Part shown: positions 4,415 through 64,000 of the stretch, piece by piece | Position numbering within the stretch: the first letter of the stretch is position 1 | Layout of the letters: each line of letters starts with the position of its first letter | Virus record (IMG/VR): IMGVR_UViG_3300033124_000732 | Source: a virus | Lineage: Duplodnaviria > Heunggongvirae > Uroviricota > Caudoviricetes | DNA length: 64,000 nucleotides | Reading direction: 5' to 3' (one strand) | Notes under the pieces: generated by a model | What the model was told of the DNA's origin: nothing | The model's input: only the letters and a program-made list of their open reading frames with translations | The model's database searches: none | Made by a program: the position numbers and the translations under genes

Positions 4415-4415
4415 A

Positions 4416-7867: not shown

Positions 7868-7873
7868 AAATTT

Positions 7874-7947: not shown

Positions 7948-7959
7948 ATTAAATACAGC

Positions 7960-8571: not shown

Positions 8572-8760
8572 CACACTGTCTGCGGCATTTCAGCCCATGC
8601 CAGCTCAATGTGTGTATTAAAGCACTCTAAAATACTTAGGCTGCCTGTTCTTAAAGAACGCTTTAATACGCTCGGATTTTTTTATGTACAAGAACATAAG
8701 CCATCCCCGAGGCCGCCCATTTGTAGTTTAGAGTGATACAGGCTCGCGTTGCCGTTGCAC

Positions 8761-8792
8761 TAAATGAAAAACCCAGGGTTTTTACGCCTGGG
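8761..8792 (-). terminator. rho-independent terminator (minus strand)
   Basis: On the minus strand, stem CCCAGG/CCTGGG followed by TTTTTCATTTA, about 210 nt downstream of tRNA-fMet. Confidence 0.4.
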
Positions 8793-9001
8793 TCCTTGGG
8801 TAAGATACGGTTGTATACTACTTAGGACCCTCTGCCTCCTGGAATGCTATTCATGCGACCATAGGCGTGTGACCAAACTGGTGTCTGGGCAAACTTGGGT
8901 AGCAGTGAACAGAATTGTATTTTCATCATAAGTCCTATTGTACAGTATTTACCTTTCAAGGTCAACCACTGTGTTAAAGTTATTTAGCCTTTTGGCAAAA
9001 T

Positions 9002-9076
9002 TGGTTGCGGGAGACGGATTCGAACCGCCGATCTCTAGGTTATGAGCCTAGTGAGTTGCCGCTTCTCTATCCCGCG
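9002..9076 (-). tRNA. initiator tRNA-fMet(CAU)
   Basis: 5' CGCGGG... and 3' ...CCCGCAACCA as in E. coli tRNA-fMet. C1 opposite A72 is unpaired (the bacterial initiator hallmark). Anticodon loop CTCATAA. Confidence 0.85.
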
Positions 9077-15781: not shown

Positions 15782-16153
15782 ATGAGATACTTTTTAAGAT
15801 GTGGTAGCTTATTCTGTTACGAGGAAAGCTACCGAAACCCTAAGCAGTGTTTAGGCTGCTAATGCGAACTGTTCGTCGTTTGCGTTTACGTTTTTTGCTT
15901 CTACGGCCAGGAGACCCCAACCCTAACGGCTTCTGCTTTGCCGAGCTGTCCACTCTGTTACTCTTTGCCCTGTCGAAACTATGCAGGCCCATCAAAAACA
16001 TTTTGTAGTTAGAGCCGTTTTCATTCTAACCTTATGGTATTTGACGCATCTTTCGATGGTTACAAAATGTTTATGGTGGACCTGGGGGGATTCGCACCCC
16101 CGTCCAGAACACTTTTCTCTCGGCTTCATACAGCAATAACTTACAGTATATAT

Positions 16154-16342
16154 TTATTCTCGAGGTTTGTCAATAGCTTTGGAGATGATGTCATATACTT
16201 GGGAGTATGCATCTGTTATTTTGTCTAGCTGTTGTTCTGAAACCAAATCTGTATCTTCCAGACTAACCAAGTCCTGGGCCAGATTTTCCTGTAGTTTCTT
16301 TAGTTGATTAATCACATACCTATTTATAGAACAAACGGGCAA
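16154..16342 (-). CDS. possible small acidic protein (62 aa)
   Basis: ORF only. Its start lies inside the terminator hairpin at 16333-16353, so this is doubtful. Confidence 0.25.
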   Translation of the reverse strand: MPVCSINRYVINQLKKLQENLAQDLVSLEDTDLVSEQQLDKITDAYSQVYDIISKAIDKPRE

Positions 16343-44986: not shown

Positions 44987-45859
44987 TTATTTGCCCCAGC
45001 CATTGCCCCAGAGATCCACATGCAATCTTGGGCTATAGTTATAACCACGAGCCAGTGCCCAGTCAGCTACATTCACTCGGTTGCGTTCGTATGGAGTGAC
45101 CACACCGCCTTGTGGCATCACATAGGTAACACCACGGAAACCTGCTTCACGATATGCAGCCACAGCACGATCAACTTCTTCAAAGTGTGCCAGTGTTTCT
45201 ACCACAAATTTTAAATATACTGTGCCATGCATTTGATAGTCTGCCACAATCTCGGGCTTGATAGCATCCGACCACGATTCGCCTGACGCTGATAGCTTGG
45301 GACTTACTGAGAAAGTAATTTCTCGCGTGGGCACGGCCCCTAGTGCAGGGCGACGCCATTCGTGCAAAAATGTTCGAAATGCTGGCTGTAACTTTTGAGT
45401 GCCATTGGTTTCGAATGTGATGTTCTTTAAGTCACCCATACTGCCTTGCGACAGCAGTTCTTCGTATCCACGCTGCCAACCCAACAGCGGTTCACCACCT
45501 GTGATCACAAGATGCACATCATTGCCGTTGTCTTGTTGCCAGTGATGATTGGGTGTAAGAACCAACATCTTTTCAATCAGTTCATCATGTGTGAGTGTGT
45601 GACTTAGTTCCTTAAATGCAGGATGCCACGAAGCGTAGCTATCACATCCGGTGTTCACAAGCGGCAGTTCAAGAAAATCCTTGTACAGGTGTATGTTCTT
45701 TGCCACTTGGTCTGCTTCGGTAGACTGTACGCCCGGAGCGCAGCCAAAGCCTGAGCAAGTGAAGTTGCATCCGTATGTGCGTAGGAACACTGAAGGAACA
45801 CCAACAAAGCGTCCTTCGCCCTGTGCAGAATAAAATAACTCACTAACTTTTAATTTCAT
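44987..45859 (-). CDS. queE: 7-carboxy-7-deazaguanine synthase QueE (radical SAM)
   Basis: ELFYSAQGEGRFVGVPSVFLRTYGCNFTC matches the QueE N-terminal consensus (E.F.S.QGEG...G.P..F.R..GCN..C). Cys cluster C31/C35/C40. Confidence 0.75.
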   Translation of the reverse strand: MKLKVSELFYSAQGEGRFVGVPSVFLRTYGCNFTCSGFGCAPGVQSTEADQVAKNIHLYKDFLELPLVNTGCDSYASWHPAFKELSHTLTHDELIEKMLVLTPNHHWQQDNGNDVHLVITGGEPLLGWQRGYEELLSQGSMGDLKNITFETNGTQKLQPAFRTFLHEWRRPALGAVPTREITFSVSPKLSASGESWSDAIKPEIVADYQMHGTVYLKFVVETLAHFEEVDRAVAAYREAGFRGVTYVMPQGGVVTPYERNRVNVADWALARGYNYSPRLHVDLWGNGWGK

Positions 45860-49504: not shown

Positions 49505-50131
49505 TTAGTTAGGTTGTTTAATATCTTCTACTATTTTTTTCTGCAAGTGACTCAACAACAATCCATAAGCAGGTAGGATAACCAATAAGCTCACAATGAC
49601 TTTGCTGATTGAATTGTTGGTTGCAACAATGTGCCAGTTAGCAGCCATAAACTCATTGGCACCACCGGCAAATGCAGTAAAGAAGAACACATAGGTATCA
49701 AAGAATGTGCTCACAATTGAACTCAACGCAGGTGCAATCCACCAAGTAGCATACTTCTCACGAATGTATTGGAACACGTACACATCAAGCAAATTGCTCA
49801 CAAAGTATGCAACACCTGAACCAAGACCAATCCGGAAAGCCACTGAGTCAGGAGCACCGCCTAATTTGACTACCGCCATTGATACAATGATGGCAGGGAT
49901 GAATGCCAAGGCAATCACGGCACGACCAGTTTGTTTGCCTAACATTCGCACAGTCAAGTCGGTCAACACAACCACTAGTGGAAATGTGAACGCGGCTGCT
50001 GCCAATGGTGCACCAAACACTGAGAATTTAAATTGCACGATGTAATTGCTAACAGCAATAATAATGATATGTGCCAGCATGAGCTTGTAGGCCAATGCAC
50101 GGTCAACACCATTTAAGATTCGATCTAACAT
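49505..50131 (-). CDS. YhhQ/VUT-family queuosine-precursor (preQ0) transporter homolog
   Basis: 208 aa with about 6 TM segments. FPLVVVLTDLT resembles the DUF165/YhhQ FPLTYLLSD block. Sits among queuosine-precursor genes. Confidence 0.55.
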   Translation of the reverse strand: MLDRILNGVDRALAYKLMLAHIIIIAVSNYIVQFKFSVFGAPLAAAAFTFPLVVVLTDLTVRMLGKQTGRAVIALAFIPAIIVSMAVVKLGGAPDSVAFRIGLGSGVAYFVSNLLDVYVFQYIREKYATWWIAPALSSIVSTFFDTYVFFFTAFAGGANEFMAANWHIVATNNSISKVIVSLLVILPAYGLLLSHLQKKIVEDIKQPN

Positions 50132-50148: not shown

Positions 50149-50646
50149 TTAAACGAACAGATCTTCCATCCACTCGCGATGGCCTTCTCGGAAAGCCATG
50201 TTGCTCTGTGTTTCACGCACTTCTACACGATAGCACCAGAGACGCTCTGCTTCACCCGGTCCCCACAGGTCCGGAATGTAAACACCGTTCACATACTTGT
50301 ACAGCATGTCTGCTAGGCCTTCACAGCCCAGCCGTGGTAGGATGGTGAGTTTGGCCATTTTCTTCTCTTGCAAGAGCTTGTATGTTTCCAGCTCTGGATC
50401 ATCTGCAGATACTAGTAAGGTATGATCAAATTGATCTTCCAATTGCTTCTTGAGTTCTTTGAGACCACCATAATCGGCTGCCCAATTGCGTACATCCAGG
50501 TTGTCTGTGCCAAAGTAAAACTTCATCGAAAAACTGTAACCATGAATTAGATTGCAGTGGCTGTCAGCCCTCCACTGTCTATACGCACATGGAAATGCGT
50601 CATGGTACTCTTTGGTTGAAGTAAATTTGTATGTTATCGGTTGCAT
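50149..50646 (-). CDS. queD: 6-carboxy-5,6,7,8-tetrahydropterin synthase QueD
   Basis: CxxxHGH zinc motif (SHCNLIHGYSF). AGGAGG RBS 7 nt upstream of the ATG at 50646. The ORF track's extension to 50814 is rejected. Confidence 0.75.
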   Translation of the reverse strand: MQPITYKFTSTKEYHDAFPCAYRQWRADSHCNLIHGYSFSMKFYFGTDNLDVRNWAADYGGLKELKKQLEDQFDHTLLVSADDPELETYKLLQEKKMAKLTILPRLGCEGLADMLYKYVNGVYIPDLWGPGEAERLWCYRVEVRETQSNMAFREGHREWMEDLFV

Positions 50647-50729: not shown

Positions 50730-51125
50730 TTATGCAGGTTGTTGATAGCCTGTTGTTTTGTAGTTGGCTTGTCCGTGAATAACTCCACGTACCCCACCCA
50801 CAGGATCTGCACAATCGCCCACACGTCGTGGAATCAAATGCACATGCGGATACATTACAGTTTGCCCTGCTTCTCGCCCCATGTTGATGCCAATGTTGAA
50901 CGCATCACACTTGCCATCAGCTACCATACGCCGACCATGCAACATGGCTGATTCAAAACATTCCATGATTACATCATCAGTATTGTATTGTGGCACAAAC
51001 AACAAATGTCCTGAAGTTACTGGAAAGCGATCACGGAACGCAGCTACATGAAAGTCCGAAAGTTCTTCCACACGGTCGTCCCAGGGTGCAATGCCTTGTT
51101 GACGTGCAATTTCTAAATCAGTCAT
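50730..51125 (-). CDS. HIT-family (histidine triad) protein
   Basis: HVHLIP histidine-triad motif. 131 aa. Confidence 0.7.
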   Translation of the reverse strand: MTDLEIARQQGIAPWDDRVEELSDFHVAAFRDRFPVTSGHLLFVPQYNTDDVIMECFESAMLHGRRMVADGKCDAFNIGINMGREAGQTVMYPHVHLIPRRVGDCADPVGGVRGVIHGQANYKTTGYQQPA

Positions 51126-51955
51126 TTAACTCCTTTTAATACGTTGATTACATCTTGTTTGTTACCAAACTGGTGTGGTTGAGAATTTGGTACATGTGTA
51201 TACCAAAAGTCTAACATGCGAAACAGTCGTGTACTACTAGAAATCACTTGTTCTACCCAGGCAATTTTAGGCCTTGGCGACACATTATAAAATCTTAGTT
51301 TATTATACTGCTCATTTATTGCTGAATCAAACATTTTGATATATGCCAATGCTAATTCGGCAGTATACATAAAAAATCCTGTAGGGTGTTGACCGGATCT
51401 AAACACATCTAACGCAAAGTCCACAATGTTACAATAAAAGTGATCTTGATCTTGATCTTGATTGATATCACCCACACCATTTACATAGTATCCGCCAAGA
51501 GCTTGAATTTCGTCAGCTAGATATAAATTAGCTACAATACCAGTTTGGTGAGTGTTTCTTAACACTAACAAATACTTTTTAACAATGTCCTCATACTCAG
51601 AAATAGTTACTGTTTTAATTAACGGAGTTACGTTGTGTTGTTGGCACCAATATTCAGCATACCAAGACTCTGCGGCATTGAGATTGCTAACTTGAAGGAT
51701 CACTGGTGTAAATGAAATATGGTTTCTAACAAAAGTGTTGGCAATCAATTCACTGTCGAGTCCGCCACTAAGGCTGAGATATAGTGGCCGGTTGCTCCAC
51801 TCCTGGCATAGCATTTGTGCAGCAATGTCACATGCTGATTGAAAATCCAATTCTTCAGTAGCAGGATTGTTAACTCGAAATGAAAACTGTTCAGGTGTAA
51901 GATTTACACTGCACCAGCCATTATGGCCAGCTGGATGCCATGTGTTAACGCTCAT
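51122..51955 (-). CDS. PP-loop ATP pyrophosphatase-family protein (277 aa)
   Basis: LSLSGGLDSELIA (SGGxDS). No C-terminal Cys cluster, so not a canonical QueC. Confidence 0.6.
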   Translation of the reverse strand: MSVNTWHPAGHNGWCSVNLTPEQFSFRVNNPATEELDFQSACDIAAQMLCQEWSNRPLYLSLSGGLDSELIANTFVRNHISFTPVILQVSNLNAAESWYAEYWCQQHNVTPLIKTVTISEYEDIVKKYLLVLRNTHQTGIVANLYLADEIQALGGYYVNGVGDINQDQDQDHFYCNIVDFALDVFRSGQHPTGFFMYTAELALAYIKMFDSAINEQYNKLRFYNVSPRPKIAWVEQVISSSTRLFRMLDFWYTHVPNSQPHQFGNKQDVINVLKGVK

Positions 51956-52868
51956 CTACTACTAACTTTCCAGACTCATAGTAGCGACTAAAACACAATC
52001 TATTGGTTTGCAAACTGCCACGATTGTAGTGATCATATTTGTGCTCGGTGTCTATGCCAAACAGTACTGTATCACTTGGTTCAAGATCTAACTGATTGCA
52101 AAACTCCAATTGTTTAGAACGCCATTTGGTAAACGTGGTATCTGGATTTCTACTGGCCATTAATTTGAGACCAATTGCAGCCGATAACTTGTTTACGTAC
52201 TGAGTGCTGTGATAGATTTGCATGCCGTCTTCAAAATCTTCTCTAGCAAATCTAATACCAATACGCAAGGCATTTACCGGAAAACTTTTGCTAAGACTAA
52301 ACACCACCTCTTGAATAGCTGGATGAGAAAAGTCATAATGTTGATTTGCGCACACACCAAAGAAGGCAGCGTCAATCAGTACAGGCACGCCCAATTCATA
52401 ACACTTGTCCAAGAACTTCTGATTAAAATGTTCGTGTGTGTTTCCGGTATCAGCAAATGGCCAACTCACAATCACTGCATCATTTGTTTTGATATCATCA
52501 ACATCTATAAACGTCCATTGGTCTGCATAGTGACGCTGCCATATACGTTTGTGATAGATGTATTCTCCACGAAATACTCTAAACCGTCGATCATGATGTC
52601 GGATATAAAAATTATCAAAGGCTTCTGTAGTGCCTTGACTAAATGCCACAACTGGCAATGTATCCAACCCAGTCACAGTGTTTAGTTGGCTGCTCAAAAT
52701 CCAATTTTGAAATTGAGCACAGTAGTCGGGTACTACTGAATCGCCCAAGTTGTTAAGTGCAGTAGATTGCAACACTTGATGGGTTAGATCAAGTTGCTGT
52801 TGCTCCACAACACATTCAGCCGGCGCATAAGGCCGTCCAATCAATTCAGGCTGTAATGGTAGGGTCAT
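51945..52868 (-). CDS. PLP-dependent aminotransferase-like protein (class I/II-like)
   Basis: FSLSKSFPVNALRIGI resembles the SxSK...G.RxG PLP-lysine block. Low-to-moderate support. Confidence 0.45.
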   Translation of the reverse strand: MTLPLQPELIGRPYAPAECVVEQQQLDLTHQVLQSTALNNLGDSVVPDYCAQFQNWILSSQLNTVTGLDTLPVVAFSQGTTEAFDNFYIRHHDRRFRVFRGEYIYHKRIWQRHYADQWTFIDVDDIKTNDAVIVSWPFADTGNTHEHFNQKFLDKCYELGVPVLIDAAFFGVCANQHYDFSHPAIQEVVFSLSKSFPVNALRIGIRFAREDFEDGMQIYHSTQYVNKLSAAIGLKLMASRNPDTTFTKWRSKQLEFCNQLDLEPSDTVLFGIDTEHKYDHYNRGSLQTNRLCFSRYYESGKLVVDER

Positions 52869-53684: not shown

Positions 53685-54377
53685 TCATCGTGGTGCAAAG
53701 TCCTGTTGTAGTTTGATGTTGTCAAAGAATTCTTTCTTCACGCTTTGGTCTGACTTAAACGCACCGTGTAAAACTGTGGTTTGTGTAAGACTAGAGTGTG
53801 CCATGATACCGCGATTCTCACAACAACCATGGGTAGCTTGAATATAAACTGCGACATCTTTTGACCCGGTCGCAAATTCAATTTCGCGAGCAATATCCAT
53901 ACATAGTTCTTCTTGGAGAGTCCCACGTCTTGCACACCACTGCGCGATCCGCGTGTACTTGGATAGACCAATGAGCACGGGTCCAGCAATGATTCCAATA
54001 TAAGCCACACCCGTAACAGGTTGGTGATGATGGCTACACATGCTCTTAAGCTCTGAACGCACCACCAACATACCTTCGTACGCTCCTTCTGTGTCATTTG
54101 GAAACGCTGTAGCATTAGGGCTCTCCTCATAACGGCCAGCCATAATTTCATTGAAGTACATTTTGGCAAGACGCTGTGCGGTACCTTTTGAGTTTGGATC
54201 ATTTTCCCTGTCGATTAGTAATACATCAAGCACTTGTTCAAATGCGTTGGTAGCTTCGTTGATTAAACTGTGTTTGGTCTCTTCATCAACATACTCACTG
54301 ATGTTGTCTCCTGCCCAAAATCTTTTGCCTTCTGCCTTCATCTGTTCGCGAAGGACTTGTGATAAGTGTTTTTCCAA
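53685..54377 (-). CDS. folE: GTP cyclohydrolase I FolE
   Basis: CSHHHQP (CEHH-type zinc site) and HGCCENRG (HMCM-type) blocks. 230 aa. Confidence 0.85.
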   Translation of the reverse strand: MEKHLSQVLREQMKAEGKRFWAGDNISEYVDEETKHSLINEATNAFEQVLDVLLIDRENDPNSKGTAQRLAKMYFNEIMAGRYEESPNATAFPNDTEGAYEGMLVVRSELKSMCSHHHQPVTGVAYIGIIAGPVLIGLSKYTRIAQWCARRGTLQEELCMDIAREIEFATGSKDVAVYIQATHGCCENRGIMAHSSLTQTTVLHGAFKSDQSVKKEFFDNIKLQQDFAPR

Positions 54378-54429: not shown

Positions 54430-55026
54430 TTAGACGGAATCGTCAACGATTTTGATATTTCTCAAGTCAGGGTATGGCACATGTACGGGTTTGGGATTGT
54501 GTTCTTTGACACCTTGCAACAATGCCATACCTTGAACAGCATCTTCGATACTGGGTTTGTAATGATAGCCCACATGAAAAGTCTTTTGGTCTTGCCACGG
54601 AACCACAGTTAAGTCTCTGCCATCATAGCGTTGACGCAATATAGTTTCATATGCTATCTTGTCATCTAACAATATGGCACCACCATGCCCAATTGCCAAT
54701 GGCTTGTTATGGCCAAAGCTCAAACACTGCATGGTACCCAGGCGATACATGCCTGATTCGAGTCTACGAGCCGAGTCCCATATGCGGGTGCCATGGAACC
54801 GATATTCGCCGGTCCACTCCTCTTCTCGGTAGTAGTATTTGATACCCAATTTGTGCATGGTCATAGGTATGCTGAGATAGGTATATGGAGTCATTACAAC
54901 TTCTCTCACTCGATTATATCGCAAGCAAAGTTCAATGGCATGTGTACAGCAATCAGTCATGACAGCATACGGTGCTCCTGTGAACTCTGCTAGTTCGTCT
55001 TCAAACTTTTTTATCTTGTCGAACAT
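54430..55026 (-). CDS. DegT/DnrJ/EryC1-type aminotransferase-like protein, short form (198 aa)
   Basis: SFGHNKPLAIGHGGAIL resembles the DegT PLP-lysine block (SFHxxKxxxxGEGG). Only about half the normal length. Confidence 0.5.
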   Translation of the reverse strand: MFDKIKKFEDELAEFTGAPYAVMTDCCTHAIELCLRYNRVREVVMTPYTYLSIPMTMHKLGIKYYYREEEWTGEYRFHGTRIWDSARRLESGMYRLGTMQCLSFGHNKPLAIGHGGAILLDDKIAYETILRQRYDGRDLTVVPWQDQKTFHVGYHYKPSIEDAVQGMALLQGVKEHNPKPVHVPYPDLRNIKIVDDSV

Positions 55027-55963
55027 ACCAGTTCCATGCGTGTTGAATCATGTCATCTAAATCATGATGCCGCCAAGCCCCTGCAACCAGGTTAAACTTG
55101 TCTGGACTTGCAATCAGTTCAGGTGGATCGCCTGCTCGACGAGCCTCTGTGCCAATGTGAGGCATCTTGCCAGTGATAGTTTTTGCCTGCTCTATTACCT
55201 GTTTGACACTGAACCCTTGATTTGATCCAAGGTTGTAGACCCCTGCAGGGATTTTGTGATACAACGCCAAAGCGTGGGCTCGGGCGATATCATCCACATG
55301 CACATAATCGCGAATGCAAGTACCATCAGCAGTAGGGTAATCATCACCATATATTCTGAACTGTCCATCATCTCTTGTGGCCTCTAAAAATTTAGCAATC
55401 AAGTGTGTGGCACCTGGCTCTTGTCCGTGCCTACCTTCAGGATCGGCACCACAAGCATTGAAGTAACGAAAGCCCACATAGTCAAGACCGTATGCCCGGT
55501 GATAGCTTTCCAGCATCATGTCACTCATCAGATTAGATTCACCATACGGACTGACAGGCTCTTTAGGATCCACTTCGTGTATGGGATTCATGATAGGTTC
55601 GCCGTATGTGGCAGCACTAGAACTAAACACCAACTTACAACGAGGCATGCTTTGTTTAACAATGTCCAACAACTTCAATGTTTTGGCCACATTGTTGTTG
55701 TAGTATTCTGAAGGATTCTTTACTGAAGGACCCACAAGACTGGTGCCAGCACAATGGATAATAGCATTGGGTTGTTTTTGTATGATCCAACTTAGGGCAG
55801 TATCAGTAGAAAAATCTTCACACAAGAATCCGTCGGGCACACCTTGAAGATGCTTGGGAGGATCTCTACGGTCAATGCCGTACACTGTATGCCCAGCATC
55901 TTTCAATGTGAGCATGGTCTGACCACCAATATATCCAGCTGAGCCGGTTACAATTACAATCAT
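55001..55963 (-). CDS. NAD-dependent sugar epimerase (UDP-glucose 4-epimerase GalE-like)
   Basis: GSAGYIGG Rossmann motif and overall GalE-like blocks. The YxxxK catalytic motif aligns to PYGESNLMS with both lysines replaced; worth checking. Confidence 0.7.
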   Translation of the reverse strand: MIVIVTGSAGYIGGQTMLTLKDAGHTVYGIDRRDPPKHLQGVPDGFLCEDFSTDTALSWIIQKQPNAIIHCAGTSLVGPSVKNPSEYYNNNVAKTLKLLDIVKQSMPRCKLVFSSSAATYGEPIMNPIHEVDPKEPVSPYGESNLMSDMMLESYHRAYGLDYVGFRYFNACGADPEGRHGQEPGATHLIAKFLEATRDDGQFRIYGDDYPTADGTCIRDYVHVDDIARAHALALYHKIPAGVYNLGSNQGFSVKQVIEQAKTITGKMPHIGTEARRAGDPPELIASPDKFNLVAGAWRHHDLDDMIQHAWNWYVRQDKKV

Positions 55964-57174
55964 GCTTCGATCTTTACAACTTGATATTTTTCGTGAGAAG
56001 CGTGGTCACGATAGCGATTGCCCGCTCTATTCCATTGCTCACCCACACCGCTAATAATATCCACAACACGATCCACAGTGGAATTGTTCCAGTCGGAAAT
56101 AAGTCCCATGTTGTGGTGCGGCTCGCGAAGTAGGTTTTGCATTTTGTGATAAGCATCATCTATGCTCCAGGGAATATACAGTCTATTGGGATCGTTTGCG
56201 AAGGTTTCAGGAAAACTGCGATACGCTGGATATAACACATTGCATCCAAGAGTATCGGCCTCTGATACGGTGTTTGAAACCCAATCTTGTAAAGCACAAT
56301 TAAACAACACACGAGTATTGTTAAGATGAGCATAGTATTCATTTTTGCTTATGTTGTCGTAGATTTTGAGCTTGCCTTGTGCCTCCATACGGCGGGCACG
56401 TTCAATATACTCTGGATTGTTGGATCGGAGAGGTCCGCCACTGTATATTGCAAACTCACATGGCTCGCTGGTGAGCTCACCATACATCTCAATGAGGTCC
56501 ATAAAGAAGCCAGGTTGCTTCTCTTGATCGAACCTTGCTGCGAAACCCACCCTCCGCGGACGCGAAGCAAACGGCGTGATATTTCCCGTTCCGCCAATTC
56601 TCTCCAGAACTTCTGATTTGCCAAATGCCAGGCCGGAAATGTTGTAGATTGGAGCAGTCCATCCAGCGATGCGCATGTGCGCGACCATTTCTTCATTGGT
56701 AGCCAATACTGCACCCCCCGAGAAAGCCACCATCTCATTGACCATTTGTTCATACAAGTTCATCCACTTTGCCATTCCCCACACATGCACGAAGTCATCA
56801 GGATCAATGGCCTGTGCCAAACAACGAACATAGATCTTTGGACATTGTTCTTGTGGAATCTGGTTCATGATGTAGCCAAGACTTTCAAAGCCTGGTTGGA
56901 ACATGTCTTCAAAGTAGATCACATCATCACCAGTTACATCACCGTTCTTCATGAGCTGAACCAAGTTCATCATCTGGCTCATGGCAAAGTAACTGCGTCC
57001 GTGTGCGTCCAACACCTGGCCTACCGAGATGGCTTGTGTGTTGTCGATTGTGGTGCCAGGCACATACACAACATCTAGTCCTCTGCGGTCAAACACACGT
57101 CGATTCCATTCTGTCAGTTGCAGTGTGTAGCGGGCTTCATAACTTTCCAAGCCCATGTAGAATAGTTTTCTCAT
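55960..57174 (-). CDS. T4 alpha-glucosyltransferase (AGT)-like GT-B glycosyltransferase (about 404 aa)
   Basis: N-terminus MRKLFYMGLESYEARYTLQLTEWNRRVFDRRGLDVVYV parallels T4 AGT MRICIFMARGLEGCGVTKFSLEQRDWFIKNGHEVTLVY. Start at the ATG at 57174. Confidence 0.5.
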   Translation of the reverse strand: MRKLFYMGLESYEARYTLQLTEWNRRVFDRRGLDVVYVPGTTIDNTQAISVGQVLDAHGRSYFAMSQMMNLVQLMKNGDVTGDDVIYFEDMFQPGFESLGYIMNQIPQEQCPKIYVRCLAQAIDPDDFVHVWGMAKWMNLYEQMVNEMVAFSGGAVLATNEEMVAHMRIAGWTAPIYNISGLAFGKSEVLERIGGTGNITPFASRPRRVGFAARFDQEKQPGFFMDLIEMYGELTSEPCEFAIYSGGPLRSNNPEYIERARRMEAQGKLKIYDNISKNEYYAHLNNTRVLFNCALQDWVSNTVSEADTLGCNVLYPAYRSFPETFANDPNRLYIPWSIDDAYHKMQNLLREPHHNMGLISDWNNSTVDRVVDIISGVGEQWNRAGNRYRDHASHEKYQVVKIEA

Positions 57175-57406: not shown

Positions 57407-57883
57407 TTAGATAGCAATGTTGATATTGGGGCGGTGAGTTTCATATTTAATAAGGGCTCCATTTTCACCATCTTCAGAGACCTCAATCCAGACTGAGCGT
57501 CCGGGATACCTGCCAGCGATTTGCAAATACAAATCGTCCGACATCATTTCACATGACTTGTAGTCAAGTTGGATGGTTCCTTCTTTGTAGAGCTTTTCGA
57601 GCCATCGCTTGAACTGGATGAATTCAATGTCTCTATCATTGTGTACAACAGAAATCCACACCCGGAAGTGGAAGATATGACGGTGAGGAGTACCAAGGAA
57701 ACTAACGTCATACTCATCGCCCGTCTTAAGGGCTGGATCTGTTGCGGCTGCTGGGTAACAGTGGATGCCTTCTCTTTGGAAGGTAACCCAGATTTGTCTT
57801 TGAGCGGCATGCTTGATTCTTTCTACAGTGTCTCGTTCAGCTTGTATCATTTGATTACTTCGTCCTTTGTGTATTGATCCCAT
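57407..57883 (-). CDS. hypothetical protein (158 aa)
   Basis: ORF only. His-rich patch TPHRHIFHF. Confidence 0.45.
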   Translation of the reverse strand: MGSIHKGRSNQMIQAERDTVERIKHAAQRQIWVTFQREGIHCYPAAATDPALKTGDEYDVSFLGTPHRHIFHFRVWISVVHNDRDIEFIQFKRWLEKLYKEGTIQLDYKSCEMMSDDLYLQIAGRYPGRSVWIEVSEDGENGALIKYETHRPNINIAI

Positions 57884-58380
57884 GAGGTAAATGTTTTTCT
57901 ATCCAGCAAATTATGCAGGCTGTGACACCATACTCCGGGGTTGGTTGCTTTGAAATCTTTGTCGTCCAGTTTGATTGTGGTATTGTAACCTAGCAGTTTG
58001 ACGTAAGGTAGTTTTACAGATATCATTGGGATAAATTGTGACTGTTCGCACAAACTGCCTTCAGCTAGGCCTTCCACAGCACTGACATCAAGATCTAGTG
58101 TACACCAGTATCCTTTGTCCAACCACGGTTGAATCATGCGTTCCCACGCAGTCCAGGCTTCAGCATCATTGATAGTGGGATTTGGAAAACTTTGATTGGC
58201 ACCAAAATAGATGTGTGTGATTGGTAGTTTTGATCGTGCATCAATTTCGCCACGCTTCCAGTCAATATCTGATGCAGTTTGCAATCCTACCACAAACAAT
58301 GTGCGGTGTCCAGCAACAGGGCTGGCCTCAACTTCTGTACCTACAAAGAAGTTGGTGTCTGCGTGTCCTTGGCGATTCAT
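57847..58380 (-). CDS. hypothetical protein (177 aa)
   Basis: ORF only. Confidence 0.45.
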   Translation of the reverse strand: MNRQGHADTNFFVGTEVEASPVAGHRTLFVVGLQTASDIDWKRGEIDARSKLPITHIYFGANQSFPNPTINDAEAWTAWERMIQPWLDKGYWCTLDLDVSAVEGLAEGSLCEQSQFIPMISVKLPYVKLLGYNTTIKLDDKDFKATNPGVWCHSLHNLLDRKTFTSWDQYTKDEVIK

Positions 58381-59927
58381 TTGATTTGCTCACTTTCAAG
58401 CAGTTGTAATGCTTCTAATTGTAACTGGTCTTCGGGTTCTGTGTCAACTTCTGGTTGTTCGAAAGAGAACAGTGCGTTGAATTGTGTGCGAGCGTTTTTG
58501 GTCTTCTTACCTTTGAATCCTCGTGTGCCCACAATCTCCATCCAATAACTATCATATGTTTCAATAATAGCGTCAGCAGTTTCTCGATCTGGTGCGGCAA
58601 AGATTGCTTCCACAATGTCTTCAAATCGAGCATAATCGCCTGTGCTACGGCGCATCATGGCAGGATGTTCACCTGCATCAAATCGTCGATTGGCTTCTTG
58701 CACAGCAGTTAGATGCATCCAAACATTGTGCCCCATCAGCAGTGCATATGAGAATGAATCCCATGATGTCTTGCCTTCTTTGCCAATCTTATTTAGGTCG
58801 CCGGGCTTGTAAATGCAAATATCTTTCATCTGAAACAAGTCACTTAGTGGGCTGTCTTCCCAGCGTGGATAGATTCCATCTGCTACCACGCCAGTTGACC
58901 ACTTGCGTGTGTCTAGGCTGTATTTTTTATCGTCGGCACTAGGACCCATGCGATACGACCACTTTGAATCATGTTCAAATACATTTTCGTAATACACTTG
59001 TCCGTTGGCTGTGGCAAGGAATGGACTGGCACAATCAAAACTAATAGTAAAAGCCGGATTAACGTATTTTCTAACTGCTCGTTGAATTACGGTCAGTAGC
59101 ACAGCCCATTCTAACTTTGATGTGCCCAAGAAGTGCATCCAATCATGCACACCTTCTTGCAACAAATTGTCATAGCGCAGGGCTACCAGGCGACGTAGAA
59201 CCAAATGAACGTCACACATGTTTTGTCCACCCATTGACCAACCGTCAAAATGTGTGTCTGGATACTTGACAGGATCACAGTATTCTTTCATGGTTTCGTA
59301 CCATTGGTCTGCACTGCTGTGGTTGTCGCCTTGCAATACATTTAGAATCCTAGTACCACCATTACGAATACCCTTACGATGTTTCATAAAGTATTCGTTG
59401 TTGAACTTGGTAGCGTCTACTGCTTCTTGCAGTGTGGAGATTTGACAGGCCTTGCTGGCTTTTTTATCGTGAATGACCCAGGTTGGAATATCAAGTGTCA
59501 TGCAGTAATCAGACACATTGTCCAGCCAATTAAGCACAAGCTCGCGTTTCTTTTGAGCTTTAGCACAACCTGAGTTGGCCTTCCAATCACCTTCCCACAG
59601 ACCTTTGGCAATCTGGAAACCACCAGAGTCGCCCAGGAGAAATGTACCAGGCTCTCGGTTTCGTACCATGTCCTCAGACCAGTCTTGTTTTGAGAGATCG
59701 AGGTTAGCATGTCCTCCAGACGCAAGTGACCAACGATACGGAAATAAAGCCTTGGTGGAGTTGAGCCAATTAAGCTGTTCCATGTCTGTAAGGCCCTGTG
59801 GAAACCGTGCGGGATCTACATATTGTTCATTCCTTTGCTTGCCCACAAATGTGGAATAGAATCCGCTGATGGCTGGAAGAAACACAGCGTAATCCAATTG
59901 CTTGGTAGTTAAGTTATCTTGTGTCAT
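58377..59927 (-). CDS. tRNA-guanine-transglycosylase-like protein (DpdA-like candidate DNA 7-deazaguanine transglycosylase)
   Basis: FLLGDSGGFQIAKG matches the TGT catalytic-Asp block (xDSGGFQ). 516 aa. Lies within the FolE/QueD/QueE cluster. No obvious CxCxxC zinc site. Confidence 0.65.
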   Translation of the reverse strand: MTQDNLTTKQLDYAVFLPAISGFYSTFVGKQRNEQYVDPARFPQGLTDMEQLNWLNSTKALFPYRWSLASGGHANLDLSKQDWSEDMVRNREPGTFLLGDSGGFQIAKGLWEGDWKANSGCAKAQKKRELVLNWLDNVSDYCMTLDIPTWVIHDKKASKACQISTLQEAVDATKFNNEYFMKHRKGIRNGGTRILNVLQGDNHSSADQWYETMKEYCDPVKYPDTHFDGWSMGGQNMCDVHLVLRRLVALRYDNLLQEGVHDWMHFLGTSKLEWAVLLTVIQRAVRKYVNPAFTISFDCASPFLATANGQVYYENVFEHDSKWSYRMGPSADDKKYSLDTRKWSTGVVADGIYPRWEDSPLSDLFQMKDICIYKPGDLNKIGKEGKTSWDSFSYALLMGHNVWMHLTAVQEANRRFDAGEHPAMMRRSTGDYARFEDIVEAIFAAPDRETADAIIETYDSYWMEIVGTRGFKGKKTKNARTQFNALFSFEQPEVDTEPEDQLQLEALQLLESEQIK

Positions 59928-60916
59928 AGTAATTGTTTAAGACTCGATCCAATGGTTATGTGTTTATATGTTGAAATCTCGAGCAATTTTTGTACAGCCA
60001 ATTCATGATTTGGATGTTGCTTATTACCAATAACATCGTGACTATCAAAATCCTTGATATTCCATTTATCAATTTTAGTAACTTCTCCTAGAAATCCATA
60101 CTCAAGACACATATTAGAAAAGTTTTCAAGATCATTAAAGTTTTTTGATTGTAACACAAATTTTAATAGTACATTTGTGTTCGGTCTACGGTTTTTAGAT
60201 AACCAACTAAGATTATCCTGTAGTACATCAAACCGCCCAGGACGCCTGACTACTTCGTAAACTTCTTTACTACCAGCATCTACACTAATTAGAAATTCTT
60301 GAATGTTTGGTAATATACCACTGTCTGGTAATAATTTTTTCATCAACAATCCATTGGTAAAAAGTATAACACTTTGATTTGATTTTGGTTTCCAATTTAA
60401 CACCAATGGGCGCATGATCAAACTGGCCAATGGATCACCATTACCTGTCATAACGATTGACATCGGTTCTGTAAATTCATTAATCAGTTTAACAAAATGT
60501 TTAACCTGTGCAAGTTTACGTTCAAACACAGGGCCTTCGATATAGTTAATAGCACCGACGCGACAACTTGGACAGGCCAAATTGCAACTATCATCAATGG
60601 CAAAATTAATTCTGTAGTCCGGTGTTGTTATATTTCTGTCCATAACACCGCACGTATCTACAGCACAATAGGTAAATTTACGATCCTTGACAGTTTGTTG
60701 TAGTTTCTGTGCTATAGGATTGTTCCAAATATCACTCAGTGATTCAAAATCGAGTACGTTGCCTACACTAACCGGTAACCATGCATCACATATACATAAA
60801 AAACAATTTCCCTCAAGATTGACGGTCAAAGTTTTAAACGGTCGATCACAGTCGTGTGCAATCTCAGTACTTCCTCTTGAATAACTTGAAAAAATAAAAG
60901 GATTTACTTGTATCAT
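59924..60916 (-). CDS. radical SAM enzyme (330 aa)
   Basis: CxxxCxxC in DDSCNLACPSCRVG. A second Cys pair (GNCFLCICD) near the N-terminus. Confidence 0.6.
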   Translation of the reverse strand: MIQVNPFIFSSYSRGSTEIAHDCDRPFKTLTVNLEGNCFLCICDAWLPVSVGNVLDFESLSDIWNNPIAQKLQQTVKDRKFTYCAVDTCGVMDRNITTPDYRINFAIDDSCNLACPSCRVGAINYIEGPVFERKLAQVKHFVKLINEFTEPMSIVMTGNGDPLASLIMRPLVLNWKPKSNQSVILFTNGLLMKKLLPDSGILPNIQEFLISVDAGSKEVYEVVRRPGRFDVLQDNLSWLSKNRRPNTNVLLKFVLQSKNFNDLENFSNMCLEYGFLGEVTKIDKWNIKDFDSHDVIGNKQHPNHELAVQKLLEISTYKHITIGSSLKQLL

Positions 60917-60919: not shown

Positions 60920-61642
60920 TTACTTGCTTTGTGCCGGTAAGATGTAGTTATAAACAACAATGCCTGAATCCACAGTGATCTTGGCAGCACCATCATCACT
61001 GATGCGAATGGTCTTGTCACCGGTGAGGGCCAAGATACTCATGACTTGTTGAGCAGGCCAAGACCATGCACGTTTCAACTGACCATTCACACCAGGGTGG
61101 AACACAAAGTTGCCAGAGTGTGTGCTATGGTCACCAAAGAAAAACTTCAAGTCGCCGTTTTCGGTCTTGGCTTGAAAATGTGGTTCCTCGGCATTGGCCT
61201 GTGCCTGCATACGCAATCGATTGATTGCAGCCACAGTGGGTTCAAATTCAATATGCCAGTTAACACCTTTGAACTTGGGCGTCTTGAGCTTTTCAGTCAC
61301 AATTGCTTCGGCCATAAACCGATAGTTGTTTTTAAAGTCGCCCACAGCATTTTCAAAGTTGATGCCATCGGGTTCTCCACCTGCACGACGACTCAAGCTG
61401 AGTTTGGCATTTTCTTTGTACTCTTGCAAGCTCAACAGAATTTTCAACTTGCTCAAGTTTGGCATGCCAAATGTGCCCACAAAATCAGGGTGTGGGTTTT
61501 TAAATTCACCTTCCACAACCACACTCATATCTTCGGCCAAGCCTACGATCTGTGTGGATTTGTCATCACCCACAATCTTGATCAAGTCAATGCAACCAAG
61601 GTCATGTGTGTGTTGTACTAAGTCTAATAGATAATCTCTCAT
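60920..61642 (-). CDS. possible sliding clamp (gp45-like), 240 aa
   Basis: Size and beta-rich, acidic composition like T4 gp45. Located between RNase H-like/pol genes. No sequence motif verified. Confidence 0.35.
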   Translation of the reverse strand: MRDYLLDLVQHTHDLGCIDLIKIVGDDKSTQIVGLAEDMSVVVEGEFKNPHPDFVGTFGMPNLSKLKILLSLQEYKENAKLSLSRRAGGEPDGINFENAVGDFKNNYRFMAEAIVTEKLKTPKFKGVNWHIEFEPTVAAINRLRMQAQANAEEPHFQAKTENGDLKFFFGDHSTHSGNFVFHPGVNGQLKRAWSWPAQQVMSILALTGDKTIRISDDGAAKITVDSGIVVYNYILPAQSK

Positions 61643-61691: not shown

Positions 61692-62633
61692 TCATTCTTG
61701 GCGAATTACTTTTGCCAGAACTTGCCCGCCACGCAAGCTACGGACTTCTCCGGGCTTGTGCATTTCAAACCAAGCAATGTCACCAGTACCGGTACATTGT
61801 TCGATAATTTTATAGCCAAGATTTCTGGCTATTGTTTGTATCCGACTGCCTGGTGTATAACACATCCAAGCGTTTTCTACTGCTCCAACACCGTTCCAGT
61901 TGTCGCATTCATTGTAGGTAAACACTAATGCACCACCAGGACGTAGTTTTTGGTATATCTCTGTGAGAAACTTTTCAATCATCTCAATGGGTTTCCAATT
62001 AAAATAGTTGTAGGCAAAAACTAGTCCAAATTGGTTAGACGGAAGTGCTGTAAAAATTTCTGTGTTTTTCCAGTCGTTGATCACATAAGGTCTCAGTCGC
62101 CGTTGGTATTCTTGAGTAAACGGACTCATTGCAACGTTAATTAATTCTCGATCATGGTCCACAAGATACAGCGGATCCATAGGCACCATATCTTCTATAA
62201 ATGTTTCGCGTCTGGCACCAAGAACCATACCGGGTAATCTCCAATCGGTATAGTTTTTTATTGTGTTGCGCAGGCGTTCGTGATCGTCAAAATCAATATT
62301 CAACTTGCGATTGATCAGATGTTCTACTGTTTCAAAACACATCTCCTGCTCGTATCTCTTCCAACTTTCTGCATAATATTCAGGGGCCAAGCGATCAACG
62401 TCGTTTTGTAATTGTTGTTTTAATGCCTGAAGTGATTGATCAAATTTACCAATAGAATGTTTGACACCTGCAAGTTTTTCATCAAGATCTGAGTTTGCGG
62501 AATGATATTGCAAGTCTCGATTTTTTACCGCATGCAAAATGTTATCTAACTTGTCAGTTATATTACCATAAGAAGGATCCATGTCAGTACTGTCTAACAT
62601 GTTTAAGTATGCAACAACTTGGCTTAGCTTCAT
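61692..62633 (-). CDS. SAM-dependent methyltransferase with N-terminal coiled-coil region
   Basis: C-terminal LRPGGALVFTY (MTase post-I/II block). Start at the Met whose ATG overlaps the polymerase stop. Confidence 0.55.
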   Translation of the reverse strand: MKLSQVVAYLNMLDSTDMDPSYGNITDKLDNILHAVKNRDLQYHSANSDLDEKLAGVKHSIGKFDQSLQALKQQLQNDVDRLAPEYYAESWKRYEQEMCFETVEHLINRKLNIDFDDHERLRNTIKNYTDWRLPGMVLGARRETFIEDMVPMDPLYLVDHDRELINVAMSPFTQEYQRRLRPYVINDWKNTEIFTALPSNQFGLVFAYNYFNWKPIEMIEKFLTEIYQKLRPGGALVFTYNECDNWNGVGAVENAWMCYTPGSRIQTIARNLGYKIIEQCTGTGDIAWFEMHKPGEVRSLRGGQVLAKVIRQE

Positions 62634-64000
62634 TCGAATGAAAATAGTGATGTAAAAGTGTTTTCTGTGTTGGTAGCAGCCGCAAGGTCCCACTCCAACA
62701 CACCCAGCAAGTTATCGACCTTTTGATCCACAACAGTTGCTTCCATTAACCCATCGTCAAACGGCAGTTCAGTAAACCATGCAGGCAATCTTTGTTCATC
62801 GGTAGGATAGCCAATTGACGTCCATCCAAGTGCATTTGATTTGAGTTTGCACACAATGGTTTTCATACCATCCACGACCTGCATTGAGTAGTTGTCTGAA
62901 TTCATTCTACGCATTTGATTCCAGTTCATTGCGGCTCTAACGTGCCCGGGCATGTTTGCTTTGCCAAGACGTGCTTCTTCTGCCGCATACTTGGTCAAGT
63001 TGTTCACACGCTTGGGTGACCCTTTCTCCCAGCCTGGCCGCTCTTTGAATTCATACTTGAATTCTCTAATGCGTTCAATAATTTCATCTCGTTGTGTACC
63101 TGCCAGTACTTTATTTAGAATTTCTAGCAAGAAGTCTTGAATTACTTTGGGAGTATCACTGCGTTTCAAATCCAAGCCCATAGCCTTGGTCTTGCCAATC
63201 TTGCCATCCACATCCAATCGCTTGCCTTCCAAGTCAATGATGTTCACAGCATAACGCTTCTTGGTAATGAACAAACTGCGGTCAGCAACCAGTTCACGGC
63301 CAGCTTTGATCAAGGATCCCATGTCTCTGGGACAATGGAATGCCTGTTCCATAAACGCTGGAAAGCTCTCGTTTACCTGATCAGCAATTGAGTCATACAG
63401 TTGGATGCAAGTTTCTTTTGACCATTCCATACGTCCTTCTGCAACTTCTTTTTCCAGTATGGGCCACGCAGAGAAATAGCATGAGTCTGTATCACCATAG
63501 ATGATGGCCTTGCCTGTGTGATCATATTCGCCTGTGATACACTCGTTGATGTGAGCATCCATGTGCTTGGCAATTGATCTGCCTGCCAGTGTGGTTGACT
63601 GCCCAATGCGCTTGTCAAAGAATCTACAGCCTGGATTCAAAATAGCACCATACAAGGAGTTAAGGTTAATCTTCTTGACCAGCTGACGCTTGTCCCAGAA
63701 CGCAATCTCTTTGGGATCCTTGGTTTCTTTCTTCTTGGCCTGTAGCTCTTGTCGCTCACGATACCAGCGTTCTAGCAAGCCGGGGATGATACCTTTCTTC
63801 TCGTAAGTGAGAATGGTACCATTGGCAGTGAGGATCCAGGGCTGGTTGCTATCAAAGATCATGTGCCAGATTTCCATGGCCGAGTGGACTGACTCTTCGC
63901 CGCCTTCCCAGTCAATGGTAATTTCTGTGCCACGTTGCTGTTCCATTACGGCTGTGTATTCTAAGCTGGCAAACAGGCCTTCCCATGCAGCCGCAAAACT
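62630..64000 (-). CDS. family B DNA polymerase, C-terminal portion (gene continues beyond window end)
   Basis: Motif B KINLNSLYG and motif C IYGDTDS. The reading frame stays open upstream of 63946 through position 64000. Confidence 0.85.
   Translation of the reverse strand, partial: SFAAAWEGLFASLEYTAVMEQQRGTEITIDWEGGEESVHSAMEIWHMIFDSNQPWILTANGTILTYEKKGIIPGLLERWYRERQELQAKKKETKDPKEIAFWDKRQLVKKINLNSLYGAILNPGCRFFDKRIGQSTTLAGRSIAKHMDAHINECITGEYDHTGKAIIYGDTDSCYFSAWPILEKEVAEGRMEWSKETCIQLYDSIADQVNESFPAFMEQAFHCPRDMGSLIKAGRELVADRSLFITKKRYAVNIIDLEGKRLDVDGKIGKTKAMGLDLKRSDTPKVIQDFLLEILNKVLAGTQRDEIIERIREFKYEFKERPGWEKGSPKRVNNLTKYAAEEARLGKANMPGHVRAAMNWNQMRRMNSDNYSMQVVDGMKTIVCKLKSNALGWTSIGYPTDEQRLPAWFTELPFDDGLMEATVVDQKVDNLLGVLEWDLAAATNTENTFTSLFSFE

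Follow-up and report, generated by a model that had tools for sequence, protein, structure and literature searches.

A candidate zinc-less DpdA-type DNA-guanine transglycosylase with a polymerase-like C-terminal tail in an uncultured tailed phage

Here we have examined a 64,000-nt stretch of DNA from an uncultured tailed phage (Caudoviricetes; IMG/VR record IMGVR_UViG_3300033124_000732), hereafter the window, in which ORF, profile and fold evidence mark a 516-aa open reading frame at 58377..59927 (-) as a candidate DpdA-type DNA-guanine transglycosylase of the TGT superfamily. The ORF lies in a phage replication module and is joined to both flanking ORFs by ATGA start/stop overlaps, an arrangement that suggests translational coupling of the three. 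The module includes a family-B DNA polymerase, PolB, whose N-terminus is past the window edge (62630..64000 (-); Pfam DNA_pol_B, E 1e-22; 28% identical to T4 gp43), and a conserved 240-aa protein (phrog_12062; 60920..61642 (-)) that separates PolB from the transglycosylase in 82 of the 85 loci compared. The PA5oct homolog of this protein, gp314, carries a structural-protein annotation; the protein itself has no similarity to any PDB sequence, and its single-sequence AF2 model (pLDDT 35.8) is unusable. Directly adjoining the candidate is a radical SAM/SPASM protein (59924-60916), which we rejected as QueE or as a core partner on the grounds that it occurs in just 8/85 loci and that the real QueE lies elsewhere in the window. 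The putatively coupled downstream gene encodes a conserved 177-aa protein (57847..58380 (-); 77/85 loci) with homologs in PA5oct and in ACP17, there between FolE and DpdA2; it has no Pfam, PHROG or NCBIfam match, and its PDB matches to designed 'Cake' repeat proteins are spurious.

The original prediction placed the candidate among queuosine-precursor genes, and the window indeed holds a set of them: FolE, GTP cyclohydrolase I (53685..54377 (-); Pfam E 1.3e-38); QueD, 6-carboxytetrahydropterin synthase (50149..50646 (-); Pfam PTPS E 2e-16; 52% identical to ACP17 QueD); QueE, 7-carboxy-7-deazaguanine (CDG) synthase (44987..45859 (-); QueE-like phrog_2076, E 5e-52; 32% identical to Vibrio phage QueE); and the QueD paralog DpdL (57407..57883 (-)). 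QueC and QueF are absent. The DpdL is 33% identical to phiST DpdL (E 5e-19) and 57% identical to PA5oct QCG76199, itself catalogued as DpdL (Cui et al., 2023; PMC10516641), and its LGTPHRHIF segment fits the LxxxHRHxF signature; DpdL is a published candidate CDG decarboxylase whose role is unproven. DpdL lies within ~2.5 kb of the transglycosylase homolog in 71/85 loci, and the association with deazaguanine genes extends to PA5oct and Vibrio phage 2.275.O. Two further genes belong to this neighbourhood. A Vut_1/YhhQ-like transporter (49505..50131 (-); Pfam Vut_1, E 1e-21) corresponds to YhhQ, a column of deazaguanine-linked genes in published tables (PMC10516641). A GT-B (GT4-like) glycosyltransferase (55960..57174 (-)), which probably starts at the MRKLF methionine at 57174, is a conserved neighbour of DpdL and DpdA across five phage lineages and has orthologs in PA5oct, ACP17, BUDD and BUCT-ZZ01; Pfam Glycos_transf_1 matches 6/6 members of its family (best E 7e-12), and its informative PDB matches are GT-B enzymes. 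A HIT gene is also present in the window.

The AF2 model of the candidate (pLDDT 87.6) is a (beta/alpha)8 TIM barrel of TGT type which, in fold searches, is nearer to TGTs than to other TIM barrels, and hhalign links it to E. coli Tgt at 92%. The alignments to TGT and DpdA bring three motifs into register. DSGGFQ (residues 100-105; 59613..59630 (-)) aligns with E. coli Tgt D89-Q94; across 58 diverse homologs at 26-60% identity, D100, S101 and G103 are invariant, while G102 and Q105 are kept in at least 90%. LDIP (residues 145-148; 59484..59495 (-)) aligns with Tgt FDEC (D143), with D146 and P148 each conserved in 57/58. ISFDCAS (residues 295-301; 59025..59045 (-)) aligns with Tgt MFDCVMP (D264) and with ISYDST of DpdA2, and its D298 is invariant (58/58). 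All three active-site Asp of the TGT superfamily, namely the acid/base, the base-recognition residue and the nucleophile after beta8, are thus kept as D100, D146 and D298. By analogy with D95 and F99, D130, and D256 of bacterial DpdA (PMC10164549), respectively, D100 is predicted to be the general acid/base and F104 a base-stacking gate, D146 is the base-recognition counterpart, and D298 is predicted to be the covalent nucleophile.

These results bear out the original prediction of a TGT-superfamily protein with a DSGGFQ block that is larger than bacterial TGT and has no evident zinc site. Bacterial Tgt (E. coli, Z. mobilis) has a Cys3-His zinc site, whereas the CxCxxC motif is missing from the candidate and from every long-form homolog, with only partial conservation at C371 (39/58) and H400 (50/58); CxCxxC is likewise missing from the phage DpdA1, DpdA2 and DpdA3 sequences compared. 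The candidate is 141 aa longer than bacterial Tgt, mostly after the nucleophile, and it lies in a setting of DNA replication and deazaguanine synthesis rather than of queA/yajC. In comparison with archaeal ArcTGT it lacks the C-terminal tRNA-binding domains, including the PUA domain. Bacterial DpdA (Salmonella Montevideo, PDB 7ui4) is 14% identical to the candidate, which is without its Zn2+ site and has a TGT-type Gln at residue 199 in place of His181. Bacterial DpdA also needs the ATPase DpdB and works within a restriction-modification system (PMC10164549); in contrast, no DpdB-like or ParB-like ATPase was seen among the neighbours scanned, and the PADLOC Dpd models were also unmatched.

A direct homolog in a cultivated phage is QCG76197.1 (gp316) of PA5oct (80% of the length aligned at 35% identity; tblastn E 1e-69, BLASTP 2e-83), a protein that Cui et al. 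(2023, NAR 51:9214, PMC10516641) enter under DpdA3 in their Supplementary Data S1. Although the window comes from an uncultured phage with relatives on ~350 kb contigs, the two clusters have the same composition (FolE, QueD, QueE and DpdL, without QueC) and share PolB, the 240-aa protein, the glycosyltransferase and DpdL in synteny, the window adding accessory genes that are missing from this locus in PA5oct, for the radical SAM/SPASM protein, a PP-loop protein and aminotransferases. Both proteins carry DSGGFQ, lack CxCxxC and possess an F..LF tail peptide. Judged by this homology, the candidate is most likely a member of the already catalogued DpdA3 family (sensu Cui et al., 2023) that standard annotation libraries have missed.

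Its place relative to the other phage families is less straightforward. The DpdA3 type member, phiST CGPG_00065 (gp042), has 259 aa and reads DNGAGD where the candidate has DSGGFQ, and BLASTP finds no match between them. A phiST-type profile aligns to the candidate's family only weakly (hhalign 12%, E 0.0025, 121 columns), albeit in a motif-consistent register, and among the matches listed from a deep phiST-type profile search there were only proteins of ~250-380 aa. The phiST type is the only DpdA3 phage group with DNA analysed among the groups compared. The idea that the candidate is a phiST-type DpdA3 with extensions was rejected as the closest tie, given 12% against 97% for DpdA2 and the short proteins listed by the deep search. 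Indeed, DpdA2 (ACP17 ASD50403, BUDD USV40850) is closest by profile (97.4%, E 1e-11), the alignment spanning the 187 columns between the DSGG(F/L)Q motif and the IS(F/Y)D nucleophile; it too lacks CxCxxC, adjoins DpdL and the same glycosyltransferase family, and copies at its C-terminus the end of its own polymerase. DpdA2 has been experimentally validated in Vibrio phages nt-1 and VH7D, and the candidate has a significant structural neighbour in a 464-aa protein of nt-1. The families nonetheless differ in length (416-437 aa in DpdA2 against 516 aa), and BLAST between ACP17 DpdA2 and the long form of PA5oct is marginal (E 0.003). The DpdA1 of CAjan, compared as a single sequence by hhalign, matched over just a 21-column nucleophile motif (2%) and was set aside.

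Beyond the barrel, residues 468-502 of the candidate form a disordered C-terminal tail (pLDDT <50) in which the peptide FNALFSFE (residues 483-490; 58458..58481 (-)) resembles the C-terminus of the adjacent polymerase: the tail includes TQFNALFSFEQPE and PolB ends in ...NTFTSLFSFE*. The F-x-x-L-F-x-[FW] terminus of PolB is kept across 73 distinct loci. Furthermore, the DpdA tail co-varies with that of its cognate polymerase in five lineages: ACP17 and BUDD with their DpdA2, and PA5oct, Vibrio phage 2.275.O and the phage of the window with their long DpdA3. The true pairing was the best of 120 permutations. In DpdA2 the peptide forms the very end of the protein, whereas in the candidate it lies 26 residues from the end. 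We predict that FNALFSFE docks onto the replisome or a clamp; in T4-like phages the docking partner of the polymerase is the sliding clamp. No sliding clamp was identified within the window by PDB profile search, by hhalign with T4 gp45 or by tblastn/phmmer with T4 gp45, gp44 and gp62, and the notion that the 240-aa protein is one went unsupported (T4 gp45 hhalign 0.6%, no PDB profile match, no tblastn/phmmer match with the same three T4 proteins).

Taken with the conserved catalytic residues, the synteny and the homology to DpdA2 and DpdA3, the fold makes it probable, in our assessment with good confidence, that the product of ORF 58377..59927 is a DNA-guanine transglycosylase of the DpdA type, a TIM-barrel protein of the TGT superfamily that is enlarged and has no zinc site. 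This agrees with the original prediction, with DNA as its substrate being what we infer from these relationships. In the proposed pathway, phage FolE, QueD and QueE would convert GTP to CDG, which DpdL would probably take on to 7-deazaguanine; the lack of QueC and QueF, together with the presence of DpdL, favours 7-deazaguanine or CDG over preQ0 or preQ1 as the base that is inserted. Acting on double-stranded phage DNA, the enzyme would flip out a guanine, read its Watson-Crick edge with D146 and Q199 and sandwich it between F104 and L267; D100 would deprotonate the incoming deazaguanine, which would then resolve the intermediate. DNA modified in this way would evade host nucleases. Given the conserved glycosyltransferase, the modification finally formed may be something other than plain dDG.

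More tentatively, and with somewhat less than even confidence, we propose that the DpdA tail mimics the polymerase docking peptide and so places the enzyme on the same replisome partner, such that exchange would take place right behind the fork, and that two proteins conserved in DpdL-type clusters, the 177-aa protein and the GT-B glycosyltransferase, may be what the failed dDG reconstitution was missing or may make an undescribed glycosylated deazaguanine. If true, such tethering would join a post-replicative base-exchange enzyme to the replication fork and would explain why all or nearly all G is replaced in some DpdA-encoding phages; given its presence in both DpdA2 and long DpdA3, the polymerase-mimicking tail would be a general feature. 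To our knowledge, activity has never been demonstrated for any DpdA3. DpdL, the glycosyltransferase, the 177-aa protein and the docking tail are candidates for what failed reconstitutions lacked, expression of DpdA3 in E. coli having been unsuccessful (Cui et al., 2023, NAR 51:9214, PMC10516641).

Several observations weigh against this explanation, among them the missing Zn site, Gln199, the want of any library match, the weak phiST-type similarity (12%), the tRNA genes of the window, the unproven role of DpdL and the lack of an identified sliding clamp in the window. One rival reading is a tRNA-guanine transglycosylase that inserts phage-made 7-deazaguanine into phage or host tRNAs, at G34 of His/Asn/Asp/Tyr or elsewhere, and thereby tunes translation. 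There are 30 tRNA genes and one for a tmRNA in the window, with the Q family represented in full (His-GTG, Asn-GTT, Tyr-GTA and Asp-GTC), the DSGGFQ motif and the Gln at residue 199 are those of bacterial Tgt, and the Foldseek PDB matches are all tRNA enzymes. We regard a tRNA substrate as unlikely. An enzyme that acts before replication, on dGMP, dGTP or deoxyguanosine, with the polymerase then incorporating the modified dNTP, would explain complete G replacement: DpdA3-type phages show 100% replacement and the ADG nucleoside has been detected in CP220-infected cells (PMC10516641), the cluster of relatives holds a phosphoribosyltransferase, a metallophosphatase, a HIT protein and a cytidylyltransferase, and XGPRT occurs in BUCT-ZZ01, to which the window's own HIT gene can be added. 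However, all characterised TGT/DpdA enzymes act on polymers (PMC10164549), Cui et al. argue for post-replicative insertion (PMC10516641), and a polymerase-like docking tail better suits an enzyme working on DNA at the fork, leaving this possibility quite improbable. A last reading, in which the protein would be a TGT-like scaffold without catalytic activity, akin to the QTRT2 accessory subunit, and would bind DNA or modified bases with no exchange, is very improbable: the three catalytic Asp, like the residues that sandwich the base, are unchanged or almost unchanged among homologs at 26-60% identity, which would be unexpected for a scaffold, and no second TGT-like catalytic partner is found in the window or listed for PA5oct.

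The DpdA-type transglycosylase favoured here belongs to a family that annotation libraries rarely touch. The candidate has no match in Pfam, PHROGs, NCBIfam or PADLOC at E up to 1, including to the Pfam TGT model PF01702, which matches just 2/58 members of its family (E 0.043); Pfam PF20314 (DUF6610, the DpdA4 of archaeal viruses) is absent from the candidate and all 58 members, and PDB sequences gave nothing relevant with either the protein (phmmer) or the family profile (hmmsearch). A collection of 50,697 phage records gave no megablast match to the 50-64 kb part of the window and so does not contain the phage itself, and the exact protein is not on record. A profile built from the family would mark many jumbo-phage genomes as probably G-modified, which matters to sequencing, restriction-based cloning, phage therapy and studies of defence systems (e.g., END nucleases targeting PA5oct). 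The family comprises at least 7,300 metagenomic members, with at least 597 relatives in IMG/VR and 930 clusters at 50% identity, and every member named by any source carries the label 'hypothetical protein'.

Three independent and more sensitive tests, namely comparison of a family profile with a sequence, structural comparison and residue conservation, agree that the 516-aa protein encoded at 58377..59927 (minus strand, ATG start), an ORF placed correctly by the original prediction, belongs to the TGT superfamily. Standard searches gave no such indication: zero matches were found in Pfam, PHROGs, NCBIfam or PADLOC even at E-values up to 1, PDB sequence searches with the protein or with a 58-member family profile returned nothing relevant, and Pfam TGT was reached by only 2/58 family members (E 0.04). 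The family profile nonetheless aligns to the single E. coli Tgt sequence with a probability of 92% (E 7e-7, 182 columns), all six motifs being in register. The DSGGFQ block noticed originally (encoded at 59613-59630) matches residues 89-94 of E. coli Tgt exactly, and the FDEC, IIQG, GYAVGG, YLMGVG and MFDCVMP motifs of Tgt correspond to LDIP, VLQG, GWSMGG, HFLGTS and SFDCASP, respectively. Furthermore, an AlphaFold2 model built with 122 homologs is confident (pLDDT 87.6, pTM 0.86); its top 16 Foldseek matches in the PDB are tRNA-guanine transglycosylases (best E 1.5e-8), with generic TIM barrels appearing only at E >2e-3, and all 14 significant matches in a viral structure library are TGT/DpdA-like.

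Among 58 homologs with 26-60% identity to the window protein, S70, G72, D100, S101, G103, H265, G268 and D298 are invariant, and conservation is 90% or higher at D146, Q105, G200 and G229. The conserved residues map onto the catalytic and base-binding residues defined by the bacterial DpdA crystal structure (PMC10164549): D100 corresponds to the general acid/base D95, F104 and L267 to the base-stacking F99 and L236, D146 to the base-recognizing D130, Q199-G200 to H181-G182 (base recognition and Gly), G233-G234 to the Gly-rich loop G206-G207, and D298 to the nucleophile D256. With the Asp nucleophile and substrate-binding residues retained, and with TGTs rather than unrelated TIM barrels leading the structural matches, the observation behind the original prediction is confirmed and its interpretation as a DpdA-type enzyme is supported. 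Such an enzyme would exchange bases on duplex phage DNA by double displacement, as in DpdA and TGT, with D298 acting as nucleophile and D100 as general acid/base, D146 and Q199 reading the edge of the base, and the base itself sandwiched between F104 and L267. It is improbable that the protein instead works pre-replicatively on nucleotides; that it serves as an inactive scaffold is less probable still, as the catalytic residues are invariant across homologs.

The predicted lack of a zinc site is borne out for this putative DNA-modifying enzyme. The protein has no Cys3-His site, none of its seven cysteines forms a CxCxxC motif, and the former zinc region is partially conserved only at C371 (39/58) and H400 (50/58). 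Judged by sequence, this loss is not unique to it and is common to the phage DpdA1, DpdA2 and DpdA3 proteins examined; E. coli Tgt carries CxCxxC, which is missing from CAjan DpdA1, ACP17 and BUDD DpdA2, phiST DpdA3 and the long forms examined. The protein is also larger than Tgt, as predicted: of its 141 additional residues, 11 lie ahead of D100, 23 fall in the stretch from one catalytic aspartate to the other, and 107 follow the nucleophile. The suggested extra C-terminal domain did not hold up: the post-nucleophile part of the AlphaFold2 model has no separate folded domain. It is made up of an enlarged insertion after beta8, which can be compared with 'Ins8' in DpdA, of three short helices spanning residues 435-465, and of a tail that is disordered at 468-502.

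The identification itself is not new, since the family is already catalogued: QCG76197.1, the exact PA5oct homolog of the ORF, stands in the DpdA3 column of Supplementary Data S1 of Cui et al. (2023), who introduced DpdA3 and DpdA4. The same row lists FolE, QueD, QueE and DpdL (QCG76199) for PA5oct, and no QueC, and is of the same type as that of phiST, in whose DNA all G is replaced by 2'-deoxy-7-deazaguanine (Cui et al., 2023). The DpdA3 label is debatable, as phiST-type DpdA3 is compact (~260 aa), carries DNGAGD in place of DSGGFQ and is only weakly related to the window family (12%, E 0.0025), whereas DpdA2 of ACP17, BUDD and BUCT-ZZ01 is strongly related (97.4%, E 1e-11). The sequence comparisons thus support a phage DpdA that is catalogued as DpdA3 and lies nearest to DpdA2. 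Activity has yet to be shown for any DpdA3: attempts in E. coli failed, and other unknown enzymes are perhaps needed (Cui et al., 2023). DpdA2 of Vibrio phages nt-1 and VH7D inserts preQ0, preQ1 and CDG into DNA in vivo (Cui et al., 2023), which strengthens the assignment of the window enzyme to DNA, the substrate polymer that we infer for it. Vibrio phage 2.275.O had been placed among phages with deazaguanine synthesis genes and without DpdA (Hutinet et al., 2019), and one further work named QueE and PTPS but no transglycosylase.

The family is large, invisible to standard annotation and never demonstrated to be active. More than 7,300 homologs came from a word-indexed search. They lack Pfam domains, those named in their sources are all called 'hypothetical protein', and several are on contigs of ~350 kb. 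An exhaustive search gave 930 clusters at 50% identity, at least 597 relatives are in IMG/VR, and the only cultured phages represented (29-35% identity) are PA5oct-like Pseudomonas jumbo phages, Sinorhizobium phage Phosso and Vibrio phage 2.275.O. Gene order is conserved over 85 loci, with counts dropping mainly at contig ends: a family-B DNA polymerase (82), a methyltransferase (71) and a 240-aa protein (82) precede the DpdA, which is followed by a 177-aa protein (77), DpdL (71), a 73-aa ORF (53) and a ~400-aa protein (57) and, further along, by an epimerase (42), DegT (36) and FolE (36). The radical SAM/SPASM gene adjoining the DpdA in the window is present in only 8/85 loci, and is therefore not core. 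Both ends of the DpdA ORF overlap its neighbors in ATGA, its start with the upstream stop and its stop with the start of the 177-aa ORF, which suggests translational coupling.

The predicted deazaguanine-precursor neighbors are real. The window encodes FolE, QueD/PTPS, a Vut_1/YhhQ-type transporter, QueE (44987-45859; PHROG QueE-like, E 5e-52) and the QueD paralog DpdL (57407-57883), which has the published LxxxHRHxF signature and is 33% identical to phiST DpdL (E 5e-19); local tblastn across the 64-kb window found no QueC, QueF or Gat-QueC homolog. Given this gene set, we infer that 7-deazaguanine or CDG is a likelier inserted base than preQ0 or preQ1. The PA5oct homolog of the DpdA has DpdL and QueE close by, and that of Vibrio phage 2.275.O is located just upstream of QueF, a Vut transporter, QueC, an amidotransferase and FolE.

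Two testable leads emerge, a proposed replisome-docking tail and the conserved glycosyltransferase and 177-aa partners. FNALFSFE lies in the disordered tail of the window DpdA, at residues 483-490 (58458-58481, minus strand), and the adjacent family-B polymerase terminates in NTFTSLFSFE (TFTSLFSFE at 62630-62656, minus strand). The minus-strand ORFs of the window, which total 15,773 residues, contain F..LF only four times, and only in these two proteins does it fall within 40 residues of a C-terminus (0.36 expected). The polymerase terminus reads F-x-x-L-F-x-[FW] in every one of 73 distinct loci, in which most DpdA tails carry [QM]F[ND]xLF ~20-30 residues from the end. Distant lineages have their own versions, matching between polymerase and DpdA within each phage: terminal PSLDDLFE and TTLDELFE in ACP17, SSLESLFG and QSLEELFG in BUDD, and NNTDLFDW and NNNDLFGW in Vibrio phage 2.275.O, with terminal HFDSLFGW and internal SFNSLFDV in PA5oct and terminal FTSLFSFE and internal FNALFSFE in the window. 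When the five lineages are permuted in all 120 ways, the true pairing comes out with the highest score. The window tails resemble the C-terminus of T4 gp43, KASLDFLFG, which is reportedly a gp45 sliding-clamp-binding peptide; the polymerase tail of RB69 is likewise said to bind the sliding clamp. We propose that, at the fork, DpdA2 and long-DpdA3 enzymes may dock on the same partner as the polymerase, a connection made in no paper found in the searchable literature and apparently unreported so far. No sliding clamp was identified in the window. The 240-aa protein (60920-61642, minus strand; phrog_12062) lies between polymerase and DpdA in 82/85 loci, a position it also has in Vibrio phage 2.275.O and in PA5oct, whose gp314 is labeled a 'structural protein' on MS evidence; its position and size prompt the idea of a processivity factor, but no similarity to T4 gp45 was found.

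The ~400-aa protein (55960-57174, minus strand) is a GT-B (GT4-like) glycosyltransferase: all six members searched match Pfam Glycos_transf_1 (best E 7e-12), and its informative PDB profile matches are GT-B enzymes. Orthologs adjoin DpdL and DpdA in PA5oct (gp317, L001:10617-11678), ACP17 (ASD50404, L093:7709-8737), BUDD (USV40851, L094:6950-8107) and BUCT-ZZ01 (UTS52032, L095:9001-10167, 64% identical), so that the association spans five phage lineages whether the subfamily is DpdA2 or long DpdA3. Homologs of the 177-aa protein (57847-58380, minus strand) occur in ACP17, between FolE and DpdA2, and at another place in the PA5oct genome; searches of Pfam, PHROGs and NCBIfam gave no match for the protein, and its PDB matches were all spurious. 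Neither protein is named in Cui et al. (2023), no paper linking a glycosyltransferase to DpdL was found in the searchable literature, and this second lead also appears unreported. The glycosyltransferase may be a component that the published pathway lacks, or it may add a sugar to the modified base; together with the 177-aa partner and the epimerase and aminotransferase genes, it points to a possible final modification beyond plain dDG.

Other neighbors vary in their conservation. A UDP-sugar 4-epimerase/dehydratase (55001-55963, 42/85 loci), a possibly truncated, 198-aa DegT/sugar-aminotransferase-like ORF (54430-55026, 36/85) and a HIT-family protein (50730-51125, 19/85), all on the minus strand, travel with the deazaguanine cluster, as do a cytidylyltransferase, a phosphoribosyltransferase and a metallophosphatase in relatives (locus L011); these genes suggest sugar-nucleotide or nucleotide chemistry linked to modification. 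At 51122-52868 (minus strand), a 277-aa PP-loop-like SGGLDS protein with no family match adjoins a 307-aa class I/II aminotransferase or CobD-like PLP enzyme, a pair found in only 2/85 loci that could amidate or elaborate the CDG carboxylate, like QueC or ADG synthase. The radical SAM protein (59924-60916, minus strand), which is not QueE and sits between the 240-aa protein and DpdA, has SPASM (residues 23-89) at its N-terminus rather than the usual C-terminus, followed by Radical_SAM (110-264). The 333-aa SAM-dependent methyltransferase-like protein (61692-62693, minus strand) lies between polymerase and 240-aa protein at ~35% identity among loci. In the T4-like cyanophage BUCT-ZZ01, a Synechococcus phage, 3233-10692 (L095) carries a full DpdL-type cluster, all annotated hypothetical, with QueE, XGPRT, QueD, FolE, a DpdL-like protein, the glycosyltransferase, a 174-aa protein and two ~416-447-aa proteins ending in the clamp-motif-like SLDSFFD and SLEDFFND; its DNA is probably G-modified. 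Finally, the window carries 30 tRNA genes (2286-26897, minus strand), most of them packed densely at 2.3-9.1 kb and the four Q-family tRNAs among them, and a tmRNA (15760-16166, tag ANDEQFALAA), which together form a translation-support set of unusual completeness, as is typical of jumbo phages.
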